A stretch of 64,000 bases of DNA, from positions 1,376,001 through 1,440,000 of the forward strand of contig CAVXKA010000001.1 in the NCBI GenBank assembly GCA_963762255.1. Direction: 5' to 3'. Each line of letters starts with the position of its first letter. Within the stretch, counting starts at the first letter, position 1. The notes beneath the pieces were generated by a model. The model was not told the DNA's origin, made no database searches, and saw nothing but the letters and a program-made list of their open reading frames with translations. The DNA comes from Candidatus Eiseniibacteriota bacterium. GTDB lineage: Bacteria; Eisenbacteria; RBG-16-71-46; JABDJR01. Below are positions 17,754 through 50,382 of this stretch, one piece after another. A program made the translations under genes and the position numbers.

Positions 17754-17765
17754 TGGTAGCGGGGG
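17754..17765. repeat. att core, left copy: duplicated 3' end of tRNA-fMet
   Basis: TGGTAGCGGGGG, identical to 50339-50350. Confidence 0.9.
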
Positions 17766-17865
17766 CGTACTTTGGAGCTATTCATAACATCCTTGGGGAT
17801 CGCCTCAAGCGAACCGTTGTGATCCCCCGCCGGACTTCCCGGTCCGGCCCGCAAAGTACCCCCAG

Positions 17866-17970
17866 ACCATCGTCACCATCGTCACTTTCCCGTAACCGAA
17901 AGGATGGTGGCTAGATGCGTATGACGATCCTCAATTCCCGTACCGTCACCTACCCGCCGAGGACCGTCAC
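17866..17970. repeat. Iteron-like CGTCAC cluster, left
   Basis: ACCATCGTCACCATCGTCAC (17866-17885), ATGACGATCCT (17921-17931), ACCGTCAC (17942-17949), GGACCGTCAC (17961-17970). Confidence 0.6.
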
Positions 17971-46317: not shown

Positions 46318-48679
46318 GAGAACCCCTGACGGTCGGCACATTGCCTGGTGCCCATTCCATCCCGATGGGCAGGGGACGCCGCCGCATCAGGCGAATCTCC
46401 TGGTCTCCGACCGGGGCTTCATTTGCCACGCATGCGGGGCGCAAGGAAGTCTTCGGGACTTAGCGGGGCGGTTGGAGATTCCGACCAGCGCCGCAGAAGT
46501 GGTCTACGTCTACCAGGACGCTGACGGCAATGACAAGTTCCGGATCGTCCGGCGGGCCGGCAAGAAGTTCTCAGTTCAACATCGCAACAAGAGCGGTGGA
46601 TGGAGCAAGGGCCTCGGGCCTGCCGTCCGTGTCATCTACCGGCTGCCCGAGATCCTGAAGTCCGAGTCCAACGTCCCGGTCTTCATTGTTGAGGGCGAGA
46701 AGGACGCTGACCGACTCGCTGCGAATGGCCGCATCGCCACCACCAACCCCTTTGGTGCCGGCAAGTGGCGGCCTGAGTACAACGAGCCGCTGCGGGATCG
46801 CAACGTGATCATCATCCCCGACAACGATGAGGCGGGTCGAAACCACGCCATAGTCGTCGCGCAGTCCCTCACTGGGGTGGCCAAGTCCATCAAGGTCGTT
46901 GCGTTGCCAGACCTCGACGAGAAAGGTGACGTTTCGGACTGGCTGAATGCTGGTCACACGATCGAGGACCTCGACCGCGTGGTCGAGGCATCTCCCGTCT
47001 GGACAGCGGACGAAGGAGAAGAAGCTTCGCCGATGGGGGTCCGCGACGGCGACCCGAAAGACCTCGTGCGGACGCTCCTGGACGAGGGCATCGAGCTGTT
47101 CCACGACCAATTCAAGGTTCCCCACGCCCGGGTTCCCGTGGATGGACATTGGGAGAACTGCGCTCTGGGGGATTTCGGCTTCAAGCGGTGGGCGGCTCTC
47201 CGATACTACGAACGCACCGGGAAGATGCTGCAACGAGACAAGTTCAGCGCAGCCCTGCTCGTGCTCGAGGCCAAGGCTGCCAACGAAGCGCCCCAGCGAG
47301 AACTTCACACTCGCGTAGCCAACTTCGAAGGCGCGATCTGGTACGACTTGTCCGATCGGGACTGGAGATGCGTGCGCATTGCGCCGGATGGTTGGGAAGT
47401 CGTCTCTGACCCGCCGATCCTCTTCCGGCGGTGGCCTCACCAGCAGCCGCAGGTCGAGCCTGTCCGCGGTGGATCCCTCGGGAACATCTTCAACTTCTTG
47501 CCCCTGTCGCGAGCGGAGTGGGAGACGTTGCTTCTGCCCTACCTGGTGGCCTGTCTGGTGCCTGACATCCCGCATCCAATCCTAGCTACGTTTGGCCCGA
47601 ACGGCGCCGGGAAGAGCACGATCAGTCGCATCTTCAAGATCTTGATCGACCCGTCCACGCTGGCAACTCTGGCCTTTGGAACTGACCAAGCGGGACTCGT
47701 TCAGCAACTCTCTCACCACTACTACGCGTGCTATGACAACGTGTCGGCGCTCCCGGATTGGGCGAGCGACTTCCTGTGCCGAGCATCTACTGGAGAGGGA
47801 TTCACGAAGCGCGGTCTGTACACGAACGACGAGGACTTCATCTACGCCTACCGGCGCTGCGCGAGTCTCAACGGGCTGAACCTCGTCGTTCTGAAGCCCG
47901 ACCTGCTGGATCGAACGATCCTGGTGCACGTGGAAGGGATCGGAAAGACGGAACGGCGGGAGGAGAAGGAGTTCTGGACGCAATTCGAGAGCGTGAGAGC
48001 CCGGCTTCTGGGAGCGGTCTTCGACGCGCTGAGCGTCGCCATGAAGGTCAAGACTGCTCAGAAGCACAAGGATCTTCCCCGCATGGCCGACTTCGCGGCG
48101 TGGGGAGCCGCTGCCGCCGAAGCCATCGGCATTGGCAGCCAGACCTTCCTGGACCACTACGCTCGCGACGAGGGCGCCCGCATCGAGGAGCTGATCTGCG
48201 AGGACCCTCTGGCACTGGCGATCGTTGAACTCGTGCGGGCTCGGGGGTCATGGAGTGGCCTCGCGAGCGAGCTTCTCAAGGAAGTGAAGAGGTGGGGCCA
48301 CATGGAGAACGCCGACCAGCACGATGCCCGTTGGCCCAAGACCCCCAATCGCCTGTCCGCCCGACTGAACGAACTTCAGGCCAGTCTGGGCAAGGCCGGG
48401 GTGGAGTACCGCGGTCGTCGGACCAACCAGGGGAAGTGGATCGATCTTCGCCCCCTCGACGTGCCCGCTAGCCCAGGAACGCCCGGCAAGGACGGTGACG
48501 GTCTTCGTGGGGGATCGTCACCTCGAACTGCGGGGGGATCGTCACTCCGTAACAAGTTGACTGGCAACGTGTTAAGCGGTAACTGTGGTTTGAGTGACGA
48601 TGATGACGATCCTTCTGCCCCCACTGGTGGCTCGGCTTCACGCAGCGACTCACCCCGGATGGGGGCCTTGGGGAATTGA
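46268..48679 (+). CDS. Primase-helicase replication protein (Zn finger + TOPRIM + P-loop)
   Basis: CPFH...CHAC Zn finger; VFIVEGEKDAD and IIPDNDEAG (TOPRIM); GDVSDWL; GPNGAGKST, YDNVS, DLLDRT (ATPase). Confidence 0.88.
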   Translation: MNELLNSALAHLNLTGKRTPDGRHIAWCPFHPDGQGTPPHQANLLVSDRGFICHACGAQGSLRDLAGRLEIPTSAAEVVYVYQDADGNDKFRIVRRAGKKFSVQHRNKSGGWSKGLGPAVRVIYRLPEILKSESNVPVFIVEGEKDADRLAANGRIATTNPFGAGKWRPEYNEPLRDRNVIIIPDNDEAGRNHAIVVAQSLTGVAKSIKVVALPDLDEKGDVSDWLNAGHTIEDLDRVVEASPVWTADEGEEASPMGVRDGDPKDLVRTLLDEGIELFHDQFKVPHARVPVDGHWENCALGDFGFKRWAALRYYERTGKMLQRDKFSAALLVLEAKAANEAPQRELHTRVANFEGAIWYDLSDRDWRCVRIAPDGWEVVSDPPILFRRWPHQQPQVEPVRGGSLGNIFNFLPLSRAEWETLLLPYLVACLVPDIPHPILATFGPNGAGKSTISRIFKILIDPSTLATLAFGTDQAGLVQQLSHHYYACYDNVSALPDWASDFLCRASTGEGFTKRGLYTNDEDFIYAYRRCASLNGLNLVVLKPDLLDRTILVHVEGIGKTERREEKEFWTQFESVRARLLGAVFDALSVAMKVKTAQKHKDLPRMADFAAWGAAAAEAIGIGSQTFLDHYARDEGARIEELICEDPLALAIVELVRARGSWSGLASELLKEVKRWGHMENADQHDARWPKTPNRLSARLNELQASLGKAGVEYRGRRTNQGKWIDLRPLDVPASPGTPGKDGDGLRGGSSPRTAGGSSLRNKLTGNVLSGNCGLSDDDDDPSAPTGGSASRSDSPRMGALGN
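48491..48613. repeat. Iteron-like CGTCAC cluster, right (putative origin)
   Basis: GGGGGATCGTCAC at 48509-48521 and 48533-48545; inverted GTGACGAT (48594) and GATGACGATCC (48602); GACGGTGACGG (48491); AT-richer spacer 48550-48592. Confidence 0.65.
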
Positions 48680-50382
48680 CGACGAGCATGGCAAGTTCAC
48701 CACTGCTTGATTCCATCATAAAGTCCCGGACGGAGCTCGGGTCTGCCGCCCCGCGCAAGGCGCGCGCCGTGGCTTGGGCGCGAGTCTCAACCGACATGCA
48801 GGAGGAACGGGGGCTCTCCCTCCCCGAGCAGCTTCGCCAGATCCGCGAGTACGCCGAACGGGAGGATATTGAGGTTCTCGAGGAGTACTCCGAGGCCGCC
48901 AGCGCCTATCAGAAGAAGGCCCGGAGGCCCGAGTTCCTCCGGATGCTCCAGCGGGCCAAAGATGACCCCGAAGTCACCACCGTTCTCGTCCATGACTTCT
49001 CTCGCTTCTCTCGCGACAGCATGAACTGCAGGATCCTGATCCGGCAGCTCCGGGAAGGCGGTGTCGAGGTCGTTTCCGTCTCGGACCCGATGTTTGACCC
49101 GGAGTCGGTGACCGGGGTCTACATGGAAGCGATCACCTTCGCCAAGAACGAGGCGTACAGCAAGGAGGTCGCGTTCCACACCCGGAAGGGCTGTCGGGCC
49201 AATGTCCAAACCCGCGACCCCGAGATGGGGTGGTGCTACAAGAACGGGGGGCAACCTCTCTGGGGCTATCGGTCCGCGCGCCTCGATCGGGGTGGGCGAC
49301 GCGGGAAGCCTATCTTGAAGAGCATCTGGGTGCTGGATGACACCCTGGTCGCCGGCCGCCCTCTCTACGAGTGGGTCCGGGAAACGCTGGCGCTGGCCGC
49401 GGAGGGTGCCACGCTGGATGAGCTACGCGACTTCTGCAATCGCAAGGGGATCAAGGCGCCCAGGAAGCAGTATTGGGGCCAGTCCACGATGTTCGCTCTC
49501 CTGCAGCCACATGTTCTGCTCAAGTACGCCGGCTTCGATGTCTGGAACGTCCACCGGAAGAACGGCAGCAAGCGGCCGCCGAGCGAGTGGGTGATTGTCG
49601 AACGCGCGCACGAGCCCGTGATTTCCGAGGAATTGGCCTCCAGAATCCGGGCGGCTCGTGAACGGGCTGGCCAGTTCGGTTTCCGGCCCCGCCAGAGCCG
49701 CAGCGTCAATTCCCCCTACCTATTGACCGGGGGACTCTTTGTGTGCGGGCGCTGCGGAGCCAACATGATCGGGTACAAGACCGCCTCAGGCACGTACTAC
49801 GTCTGCGGCAGTCAGCCCTACCGGCGGGGGATGGGATGTGGGAGCGGGGTGTACGTCCCCAAGGACTACATCGAGGGCGAGGTGCTGGCCGGGGTGCAGG
49901 AGATCATTCGCGCCCGGCTGGACCCCGAGCAGTTCTCCCACCGGGTGAATCAGGAGGCAGACCGGCTGTGGGAGGCCGAGCACGGGAAGCAGCCCGACCT
50001 CGGCCGCCAGATTGCCGAGATCGAGAAGAAGGTCGCTAACCTCCGGAAGGCGCTCGAGGACGGGCTCTCAGACGCCACCTGGGCGAATGAGCGTCTCAAC
50101 GAGCTTAGTCGCGAGCGGGGTGCCTTGGTGCACCCGGAGTCGGCCCCGGCGAGGCCCCCCAAGCTCGATTCCCAGGCCGTAACCCGATATCTCGCCAACC
50201 TGTCCAAGATGCTAGAATACGCTAGCGTGAGGGAGCGCAAGGACTTGATGCAGATGATGGTGGAGAAAATCGAACTGGCCCCGGAGCGGCGATCGGTAGA
50301 GATCGTCTACCGCGCTCCGGAGCCAGTTATGAATAAGGTGGTAGCGGGGGTTGGATTTGAACCAACGACCTTTGGGTTATGA
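48676..50382 (+). CDS. Large serine recombinase (integrase)
   Basis: WARVSTDMQ (catalytic Ser), DFSRFSRD, recombinase domain, Zn ribbon CGRCG...YYVC...C, coiled coil; ORF runs through the att core into the antisense of the tRNA. Confidence 0.95.
   Translation: MTTSMASSPLLDSIIKSRTELGSAAPRKARAVAWARVSTDMQEERGLSLPEQLRQIREYAEREDIEVLEEYSEAASAYQKKARRPEFLRMLQRAKDDPEVTTVLVHDFSRFSRDSMNCRILIRQLREGGVEVVSVSDPMFDPESVTGVYMEAITFAKNEAYSKEVAFHTRKGCRANVQTRDPEMGWCYKNGGQPLWGYRSARLDRGGRRGKPILKSIWVLDDTLVAGRPLYEWVRETLALAAEGATLDELRDFCNRKGIKAPRKQYWGQSTMFALLQPHVLLKYAGFDVWNVHRKNGSKRPPSEWVIVERAHEPVISEELASRIRAARERAGQFGFRPRQSRSVNSPYLLTGGLFVCGRCGANMIGYKTASGTYYVCGSQPYRRGMGCGSGVYVPKDYIEGEVLAGVQEIIRARLDPEQFSHRVNQEADRLWEAEHGKQPDLGRQIAEIEKKVANLRKALEDGLSDATWANERLNELSRERGALVHPESAPARPPKLDSQAVTRYLANLSKMLEYASVRERKDLMQMMVEKIELAPERRSVEIVYRAPEPVMNKVVAGVGFEPTTFGL

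Follow-up and report, generated by a model that had tools for sequence, protein, structure and literature searches.

The question raised by the locus described here is what a complete phage terminase can be for in an integrative element in which no gene for a phage particle is recognised. The locus lies in a 64,000-nucleotide stretch of the genome of a Candidatus Eiseniibacteriota bacterium (GenBank assembly GCA_963762255.1, contig CAVXKA010000001.1, positions 1,376,001 to 1,440,000 of the forward strand), and this whole stretch is referred to below as the window. The host genome comprises 4.1 Mb in three contigs and is 93.6% complete; the genome records of its family relatives are titled Candidatus Eisenbacteria. 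An initial annotation of the window had proposed an integrative element with two intact attachment (att) ends, an integrase, replication genes, a small and a large terminase subunit (TerS and TerL) and a middle filled with defence genes, and had interpreted it as a phage satellite. The reading favoured here, with a probability of roughly 0.6, is that the element is a phage satellite which would package itself into the procapsids of a helper phage with its own terminase. Sequence comparison firmly supports a more general statement, that the element belongs to a monophyletic, cross-phylum family of integrative elements that is under selection and was previously undescribed.

Ends, packaging operon and search for virion genes

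The features on which the argument depends are the following, with coordinates given in the window.

17713..17753, minus strand: displaced original 3' flank of tRNA-Met with a hairpin terminator, host DNA outside the element (G006 alignment; inverted repeat I6; terminator-like site)
17754..17765: attL core, 12 bp, once the terminal 12 nt of tRNA-Met (exact repeat; G006 alignment)
19448..20650, plus strand: D12-class N6-adenine DNA methyltransferase (MTase; gene MT), first gene of the operon (PF02086, E 2e-12)
20613..21317, plus strand: ParB/Srx-like protein with a DGHHR motif (phrog_723, E 1e-13)
21298..21864, plus strand: TerS-like small subunit, probable (weak N-terminal helix-turn-helix (HTH) matches to Terminase_5, DUF1804 and NF040601, residues 4-50)
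21861..23462, plus strand: TerL, large terminase subunit of the GpA-ATPase type, 533 aa, intact (phrog_675, E 5e-105; PF05876)
46253..48679, plus strand: 808-aa replication protein with a Toprim/primase-like N-terminal part (phrog_6088 and phrog_239; Toprim-like alignment to a DUF3854 protein)
48676..50382, plus strand: large serine recombinase, the integrase (PF00239, PF07508 and PF13408, that is Resolvase, Recombinase and Zn_ribbon_recom; phrog_95, E 6e-70)
50339..50350: attR core, 12 bp, tRNA 3' end supplied by the element (exact repeat; G006 alignment)
50339..50415, minus strand: tRNA-Met(cat), the integration target (ARAGORN; RNA-family search)

The ends of the element are marked by a 12-bp core, TGGTAGCGGGGG, which is present exactly at 17754-17765 and at 50339-50350. 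When one mismatch is allowed, the core has 3 matches in the window against 0.28 expected, a number that was reached in 0 of 100 shuffles. The right copy is the 3' end of the tRNA-Met(cat) gene, which is the single tRNA that ARAGORN finds in the window, and a search of the window for RNA families (E up to 0.1) returned nothing besides this tRNA. An uninterrupted tRNA-Met site with a hairpin 3' flank occurs in a genome of the same family (G006). The 3' flank of this tRNA and the last 12 nt of the tRNA align to 17713-17765 of the window, and the tRNA body aligns from 50339 on; the crossover is placed inside the 12-bp core because the two parts match the attL side and the attR side respectively. 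In a genome of the same genus (G001), homology to the window begins at 50335. The exact repeat and the empty site reconstructed from G006 bear out the claim that both att ends are intact. On these alignments, the element was inserted into the 3' end of tRNA-Met by the serine recombinase with the 12-bp core as the site of crossover, and it is intact and bounded to the base. Its size is 32,585 bp with one core counted, and its GC content is 0.617, as against 0.664 and 0.670 in the flanks.

The serine recombinase has the Resolvase, Recombinase and Zn_ribbon_recom domains expected from its identification in the initial annotation as a serine integrase. Its open reading frame (ORF) crosses the att core and ends within the tRNA gene, and it encodes 568 aa in the integrated state and 607 aa in a circle simulated in a script; excision would thus replace the last ~14 residues by a tail of ~53 residues that ends just before the leftmost gene of the element, X. 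The adjacent 808-aa protein had been called a primase-helicase. The first half of this name holds for its N-terminal part (residues about 60-260), which is Toprim/primase-like, but no helicase domain was detected, and a search of PDB sequences gave no match.

The tRNA-Met site is a hotspot, the contents of which differ from genome to genome in four family genomes. In the 15 kb upstream of tRNA-Met in these four genomes, no gene was found in common with the left flank in the window, and the left flank may therefore be an older island at the same hotspot. Over 10800-17700 the GC content of this flank is lower (0.63-0.65), and a gene for a Fic/DOC protein with a DUF4172 domain is present there at 16460-17503. 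In genome G007, a fragment ~14 kb upstream of the tRNA (L178:1075-1353) is 60% identical to the C-terminus of the element's serine recombinase.

The packaging operon consists of four tightly overlapping genes in the order MTase-ParB-TerS-TerL. In the MTase, the FxGxG and DPPY motifs are kept in at least 95% of 32 homologues, and in the ParB-like protein the motif D77-G-H-H-R81 is kept in at least 95% of 41 homologues. TerL aligns to phrog_675 over the whole protein (residues 32-521 on profile positions 25-556 of 576), in agreement with the initial annotation of a full-length GpA TerL; Pfam matches the GpA_ATPase domain only. A Walker-A-like KAAQ.GG motif, a VFDELDE box, four Cys residues and D347/D396/D476 are invariant in 22 TerLs, and we infer that these motifs are the ATPase, zinc and candidate nuclease sites. 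The least conserved part of TerL is formed by its last ~30 residues, where the mean identity is 0.35 and 0.14, as against 0.6-0.8 elsewhere.

The small subunit is identified with less certainty. Its gene overlaps terL by 4 nt, it has the weak HTH matches listed above, and its predicted model (predicted local distance difference test score, pLDDT, 78) consists of helices throughout, with an HTH at the N-terminus and residues 47-94 forming a long helix, a structure which is compatible with a small terminase. A fold search of PDB with this model gave HTH-level resemblances and nothing significant (E up to 0.001), and neither the TerS nor the TerL alignment, used as a profile against PDB sequences, found a significant match. 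TerS is accordingly annotated as probable only.

The absence of virion genes was evaluated both in the element and in its relatives. The ORFs of the element were scanned with Pfam (40 ORFs, E up to 0.01), PHROGs (37) and NCBIfam (25), and no portal, capsid, protease, tail, lysis, relaxase or type IV secretion system (T4SS) family was found in the bounded 32.6 kb, as the initial annotation had stated. The ORFs downstream of terL were scanned in 23 loci that carry the four-gene module, from 18 genomes (7 loci with Pfam, 14 with PHROGs, and the window and a second copy in the same genome with both), and a portal, capsid, protease or tail family follows terL in 0 of the 23. The finding that had been named beforehand as refuting the satellite reading, relatives with portal or capsid genes right after terL, was thus not made. 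A “tail protein” match in one locus (L039) was rejected, since the protein is in fact an RCC1-repeat protein.

The same procedure detects structural genes where they are present. A portal, a protease and a major head protein were found in both of two prophage loci used as positive controls (L082 and L086, with TerLs of 33-35% identity), and portal, head or neck families were found within 4.5 kb and on the same strand in 24 of 29 IMG/VR loci with TerLs of 31-46% identity. These 29 control loci are what is left of 35 listed loci after the removal of six near-duplicates (L120, L124, L136, L144, L145 and L154). In five genome loci with TerLs of 43-48% identity (L074, L076, L077, L078 and L083) no portal was found; three of these loci are of low GC, so that the picking of ORFs by third-codon-position GC (GC3) is poor, and L078 and L083 carry genes of the module, and the five loci are accordingly left out of the argument.

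No structural family was matched by any of 117 ORFs that lie on the upstream side of the operon in 19 loci. Among these ORFs are PrimPol-D5_N-DUF5906, DUF3987, DUF3854/DUF927, AAA_24-DUF669-ERCC4, RecD2 and DnaG-MCM proteins, which by their domains are phage-type replication modules. The integrases in the same 19 loci are serine recombinases with DUF2924 (five full-length, together with fragments) and tyrosine integrases. Taken over both sides of the operon, these scans establish that recognisable virion genes are wholly absent from the bounded copy and from all of the relatives examined.

Distribution, phylogeny and selection of the operon

The four-gene module recurs in about 40 loci, which belong to Eisenbacteria, to Acidobacteriota and, on one contig, to Planctomycetota. 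A protein search returned at least 120 clusters (at 90% identity) that are 63-77% identical to TerL, and those of the clusters that are named belong to Eisenbacteria, Zixibacteria, Planctomycetota and Thermoanaerobaculia. When species genomes were scanned by pattern, 57 loci were obtained, and 80 loci were retained from IMG/VR, 10 of them with a TerL identity of at least 64%. As determined with tblastn, the order MT-ParB-TerS-TerL occurs wherever TerL is at least 55% identical and the upstream DNA is covered; this order is shown by most of the 56 loci from genomes and by 10 from IMG/VR in which TerL is 55-77% identical. The search for this synteny had been proposed at the outset, and it gave the same gene order across the relatives together with a consistent absence of capsid genes. 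The invariant core of the family is therefore the operon itself, while the integrases and the phage-type replication genes are interchangeable. A near-intact TerL of the clade (E up to 1e-150) occurs in 17 of the 206 genomes and 14 of the 83 genera of the phylum, a patchy spread that is typical of a mobile element.

A phylogenetic tree was computed from 100 intact TerL sequences (IQ-TREE, short search, LG+G4), 42 of which were labelled as module TerLs by the module genes upstream of them. All 42 fall on one side of a branch with an SH-aLRT (Shimodaira-Hasegawa-like approximate likelihood ratio test) support of 98, so that the proposed TerL phylogeny yields a single clade of module TerLs. This capsid-less clade is nested among the TerLs of portal-linked phages, and the rows from Eisenbacteria and Acidobacteriota are interleaved within it. 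The element's TerL lies inside the clade, with L016, L032 and L034 as its nearest rows; one short unlabelled contig also joins the clade, and the sister is a long-branched viral contig. A protein library with a clustering threshold of 50% identity contains one full-length representative of the clade (852 bits), and the next full-length protein scores 510 bits. No close relative of TerL was found in 50,697 phage records, where all 963 matches are below 60% identity and the full-length ones among the matches listed are at about 25-26%, or in 72,556 plasmid records, where all 94 matches are below 60%.

The nearest outgroup in IMG/VR (L105-L107) has a long-branched TerL of 40% identity; the genes after it encode a helicase and a DnaC-like loader, and no portal occurs within 5 kb. 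It may be another capsid-less or rearranged lineage, because these replication genes follow TerL in place of a portal.

The GpA-type terminases of the element's own genome are the two module copies only. The second TerL (C1:480915-482486) is 89% identical to the first, and the copy to which it belongs (C1:474145-484198; L015:19145-L016:9198) comprises a tyrosine integrase, a DUF3987 helicase, X, Yrev (the second gene from the left end of the element), MT, ParB, TerS and TerL, with a different serine recombinase 137 bp after terL. DNA similarity of 80-85% between the two copies spans X through TerL only. The second copy is part of a variable stretch of about 32 kb, with conserved DNA on either side.

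Some further loci are variants of, or bear on, the module. In an Acidobacteriota locus (L053:7757-9481), a single 574-aa fusion of ParB_N and N6_N4_Mtase upstream of TerS-TerL replaces the separate MTase and ParB. Two module copies (L091 and L094) lie ~50 kb apart on one 83-kb IMG/VR contig, which matches a contig of a bacterial metagenome-assembled genome (L045); from this match, the contig is probably chromosomal DNA that was flagged as viral because of its terminase. Two 4306-bp IMG/VR contigs looked like circular permutations and were considered as mini-elements, but terminal repeats are missing and the two contigs align collinearly at 75% identity, so that they are only fragments.

Selection on the operon was estimated from the ratio of nonsynonymous to synonymous substitution rates (dN/dS) by the method of Nei and Gojobori. 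For TerL the ratio is 0.14 against the second copy (dS 0.6) and 0.18-0.33 against eight other loci, the latter values being biased upward because dS is near saturation. The ratios are 0.11-0.17 for ParB, 0.19-0.32 for TerS and 0.17-0.21 for MT; the comparison of ParB with the second copy (dN 2.26) was dropped and is ascribed to a mis-registered codon alignment. As measured by these ratios, all four genes of the operon are under purifying selection, and the alignments show the catalytic motifs of TerL, ParB and MT to be intact. Relaxed selection on terL, which had also been named beforehand as a refuting result, is not found. The absence of structural genes from all 23 relatives, the purifying selection and the single clade together argue that the capsid-less state is a stable property of the lineage rather than the result of a one-off deletion.

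The cargo slot and the genes around the operon

The remaining features of the element are listed here. They comprise the two genes to the left of the operon, the region to the right of terL and the cargo.

17915..18802, plus strand: X, 295-aa DNRLRE-domain protein, accessory and not part of the core (NF033679, E 2e-12)
18869..19489, minus strand: Yrev, 206-aa protein, divergent from the MTase operon (GC3 0.86)
23463..23660: structured non-coding stretch 3' of terL with three hairpins (inverted repeats I18, I1 and I11)
23817..24464, plus strand: 215-aa Cys-rich (CxxC) protein, cargo, no family match (sequence read)
24649..28101, minus strand: type IIG/ISP-like methyltransferase-specificity protein, defence cargo (Type_ISP_C, E 2e-62; PADLOC REase_MTase_IIG, E 3e-157)
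28106..31255, minus strand: phospholipase D (PLD) nuclease-SNF2/DEAD helicase, defence cargo (PLDc_2, ResIII and Helicase_C; PADLOC HKD+Snf2, E 3e-53, and DrmD-like matches)
32173..32757, minus strand: YR194, 194-aa tyrosine recombinase with no domain besides the catalytic one, convergent with terL and closing the cargo slot (PF00589, E 1e-23)
32926..34215, plus strand: formylglycine-generating enzyme (FGE)-sulfatase-like protein, cargo (PF03781, E 9e-44)
34217..35413, minus strand: remnant of a second YR194 unit around a 230-aa ORF (direct repeats D2 and D6)
35521..36546, plus strand: PD40/TolB-like beta-propeller protein, cargo (PF07676; TIGR02800)
36642..36812: 171-nt repeat, found at 10 further places in the genome, most of them close to fragments of YR194
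37063..37797, plus strand: HNH endonuclease, cargo (HNH_2; PADLOC HNH, E 4e-21)
37880..38737, plus strand: 285-aa protein, largest ORF without a family (nearest annotated Atlas clusters restriction-endonuclease-like, leads only)
38829..39302, plus strand: HNH endonuclease, cargo (PF01844)
40136..41323, plus strand: DnaJ-domain/TonB_C protein, cargo (Pfam)
41744..45886, plus strand: 1380-aa NACHT-type antiphage-like protein, defence cargo (NF058535 EruA, E 1e-48, and NF058534 HyoA, E 2e-35, both below the curated cut-offs)

The slot that follows the operon is bracketed by terL on one side and by the small tyrosine recombinase YR194 on the other. The residues R40, K71, H142-x-x-R145, H168 and Y177 of YR194 are invariant in 10 aligned sequences. 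A full-length YR194 lies downstream of terL and convergent with it in 19 of 56 listed loci, and the relatives differ in how far apart the two genes are, with distances between about 45 bp and about 9 kb; in the window YR194 is located 8.7 kb after terL. Where there is space between them, it is occupied by exchangeable genes: a toxin-antitoxin pair of the MqsA type, AbiU2 together with a DpnII-like nuclease, an SH3 protein or, in the window, a restriction-like pair. As compared across these loci, the convergence of YR194 with terL around a variable slot for defence cargo is a new conserved feature of the family.

The restriction-like pair consists of the PLD-SNF2 helicase gene and the adjoining gene in the same direction for a methyltransferase with a target recognition domain (TRD). 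The region 24649-31255 resembles a type ISP enzyme split in two, with the PLD nuclease and SNF2 helicase in one protein and the MTase and Type_ISP_C specificity domain in the other. A Type_ISP_C protein is also found near the module in L044.

The description of the middle of the element as defence cargo is correct in part. The IIG/ISP-like MTase-TRD protein, the PLD-SNF2 helicase, the NACHT protein and the two HNH proteins are defence-like, but a role in defence is not evident for the FGE-sulfatase-like protein, the PD40 propeller or the DnaJ-TonB_C protein. The 285-aa protein has a homologue of 48% identity in L018/L032.

Two pieces survive in the remnant of the second YR194 unit, an internal one of 58 nt and an upstream one of 41 nt, and both match the intact copy at 90% identity. 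Elsewhere in the same genome there are arrays of N- and C-terminal YR194 fragments (C1:607952-613472 and C2:1146833-1151535), and the genome has two intact YR194 genes. In their sequence arrangement, the fragments and repeats look like the product of a repeated, recombinase-linked accretion of cargo units that is faintly integron-like.

To the left of the operon, X is 88% identical in the second copy and is otherwise present, at 44% identity, in L030/L081 only. Next to the MTase gene the initial annotation had a plus-strand ORF; codon-position GC (GC3 0.86) indicates that the gene is most likely Yrev, on the minus strand. A short conserved stretch of Yrev adjoins MT in many loci. Yrev has no family match in Pfam, PHROGs or NCBIfam, and a look-up in the Atlas gave nothing usable; from its position, one might guess at a regulator.

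To the right of the operon, the hairpin-rich stretch 23463-23876 might be a site of packaging, replication or recombination. Two flanking segments of it, at 23467-23497 and at 23702-23876, are matched in the opposite orientation by sequences that precede the second copy's tyrosine integrase (C1:473513-473948). The density of GATC within the module is not unusual and therefore gives no hint of a methylation-controlled pac site.

Proposed packaging into borrowed procapsids, its rivals and its meaning

If the element is a satellite, infection by a helper phage would cause it to excise and to replicate with its own primase. The element's DNA would be selected by TerS and, perhaps, marked or processed by the MTase and ParB before it is packaged, and TerL would dock on procapsids made by the helper and fill them with this DNA. 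The element would then spread in borrowed capsids while its cargo would protect the host, and the variable last ~30 residues of TerL may be the part that adapts to different helper portals. A broader proposal has an even chance of being right: that the family constitutes a cross-phylum class of satellites without capsid-related genes, whose members bring TerS and TerL, a methylase/ParB pair that would prepare the DNA and a defence slot serviced by a recombinase, and would run their own motor on helper procapsids. The initial annotation's inference of a satellite is supported in part: the results above bear out a stable and selected capsid-less terminase lineage, and the hijacking of helper proheads is conjectural.

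Several observations weigh against packaging into helper procapsids. TerL normally needs a matched portal, which is why the known capsid-less satellites bring TerS only (as described in PMC10085698), and it is not obviously expected that a TerL should be 65% conserved across phyla while serving diverse helpers. No helper phage was identified, and the element's own genome has no match to an HK97-type capsid, Phage_portal, SPP1_portal or Phage_portal_2 in searches whose controls worked. Among the 24 public sequencing runs listed, the largest share of the locus's sampled words that was found is 0.16, which probably reflects the conserved tRNA and enolase parts. The assignment of TerS depends on its position and on a weak HTH match. 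The copy in the window is the only one that is bounded at both ends. The second copy has its MT in two different frames and a TerS with a divergent 3' end, and frame-split copies of TerL occur in G006, G013, G021, G038 and G052; split frames may reflect either decay or sequencing error, the assemblies being built from long reads.

Some of these observations would be more easily accommodated if the MTase-ParB-HTH-TerL operon no longer packaged DNA into capsids and had been re-used as a DNA-processing or anti-phage device, the main payload of the integrative elements that carry it. It might, for example, be a methylation-marked nuclease or translocase that attacks or mis-packages phage DNA, or a cutter of replicated element DNA to unit length. 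In combining a modification enzyme with two nuclease-type proteins, a DNA-binding protein and an ATPase, the gene set resembles a restriction-like logic, the operon always lies beside a slot for defence cargo, the host genome lacks helper or capsid genes of the families searched, and cross-phylum conservation of TerL is easier to understand if all of its partners are encoded in the operon. Such a device, the main rival of the satellite reading, is nevertheless unlikely, given that TerL is not truncated but aligns over its whole length with TerLs of portal-linked phages, that gene order and overlaps match those of a phage packaging operon, that the operon is the invariant core while the defence genes are the part that is swapped, and that PADLOC has no model that matches ParB, TerS or TerL.

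The split frames, together with the phage-type replication and packaging genes, would also be expected in a relic of a head-tailed prophage that has lost its structural genes and retains its terminase as a decaying leftover, and an element with TerS and TerL only, NitKor-E1, has been read as a likely relic (Krupovic et al. 2019, PMC6563490). Independent decay, however, would yield varied remnants and not a fixed four-gene operon. Structural genes are kept in none of the 23 relatives, the capsid-less clade has a single origin and includes 42 intact TerLs across phyla, and the low dN/dS of the operon genes and the invariant catalytic motifs do not fit a leftover; a relic is therefore judged to be quite improbable. 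Least probable is a virus that is autonomous but has its particle genes in an unrecognisable form or elsewhere in the host genome, in a split arrangement or one like that of a gene transfer agent (GTA). Room for such genes is left by eight ORFs of the element without a family match and by a search of the host genome for the PF06074 portal in which the positive control gave no signal. Across the family, though, no unrecognised ORF is conserved save for the short part of Yrev, the largest unrecognised ORF has 285 aa with nuclease-like leads only, and neither the HK97-type capsid family nor any of the three other portal families was found in the host genome.

In gene content, the element differs from the systems that resemble it most. 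PICIs (phage-inducible chromosomal islands) carry TerS, and cf-PICIs (capsid-forming PICIs) add TerL together with a capsid, a portal and connectors (de Sousa et al. 2023, PMC10085698). Like the element, cf-PICIs are integrative satellites with TerS, TerL, an integrase and a primase; unlike it, they have their own capsid, protease, portal and head-tail adaptor or connector, as described there, and none of these is found in the element or in the 22 other module loci. Classical PICIs and SaPIs (Staphylococcus aureus pathogenicity islands), PICMIs (phage-inducible chromosomal minimalist islands) and VEIMEs (virion-encapsidated integrative mobile elements) share with the element an integrase, a replication gene, a gene for the redirection of packaging, defence or accessory cargo and the lack of virion genes, but they encode at most TerS and use the TerL of the helper (PMC10085698, PMC9618062); for VEIMEs, TerS or a capsid gene is reported, not TerL (PMC9618062).

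Among the features that characterize a classical PICI, the element has an integrase at one end (a serine recombinase) and a primase-replicase (Toprim/primase-like). No Pfam family of an AlpA/Stl/MerR-type regulator was found among the 40 ORFs (E up to 0.01), Yrev being without a match, and in place of a TerS without TerL there is a full-length TerL. The portal, major capsid, tail and lysis genes of a complete head-tailed prophage are lacking. The conserved core also differs from that of PICIs, since it comprises a full TerL, an MTase and a ParB-like protein; the element has a serine recombinase, and its length of 32.6 kb exceeds the PICI median of 9.5 kb. The integrase of PICIs is usually of the tyrosine type.

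The thaumarchaeal element NitKor-E1 has TerS directly upstream of TerL as its only genes of head-tailed viruses, and it is likewise integrated; its other genes include those for an integrase, a restriction endonuclease and a toxin-antitoxin pair (PMC6563490). As compared by its published description only, it is a single cryptic archaeal element, taken by its authors for a probable relic, with a tyrosine integrase and neither MTase nor ParB, as against a whole family under selection in the present case. Tycheposons resemble the element in their insertion at tRNA 3' ends with a partial tRNA repeat, in their own replication genes and in their cargo module, and a minority have large serine recombinases. 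The earlier statement that they use serine integrases is imprecise, in that 910 of 937 elements use tyrosine recombinases and the rest serine recombinases (bioRxiv 10.1101/2020.12.28.424599). They differ from the element in being Prochlorococcus elements, the PICI-like forms of which are described there with TerS or a capsid gene, not TerL. Nor is tRNA targeting general in the element's family: it was rejected as a family-wide trait, since a tRNA was called in 1 of 41 loci when the DNA around each was examined. A satellite class with TerS and TerL only was not found to have been described in the literature searched, a search from which subscription journals and closed supplements were excluded.

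Known satellites without capsid genes re-aim the motor of the helper by means of TerS, and known satellites that carry TerL also build capsids. If the satellite reading is true, TerS and TerL without shell genes would represent a third satellite strategy, which raises the question of how one motor docks on foreign portals, and the published statement that terminases occur in non-viral mobile elements only as relics would be overturned. Eisenbacteria and Acidobacteriota are abundant, little-studied bacteria of soils and sediments, and we know of no satellites described in them. Because the two phyla interleave in the TerL tree, the family may be a route of gene flow between them, and the slot between terL and YR194 offers a ready-made place in which to seek new defence systems.

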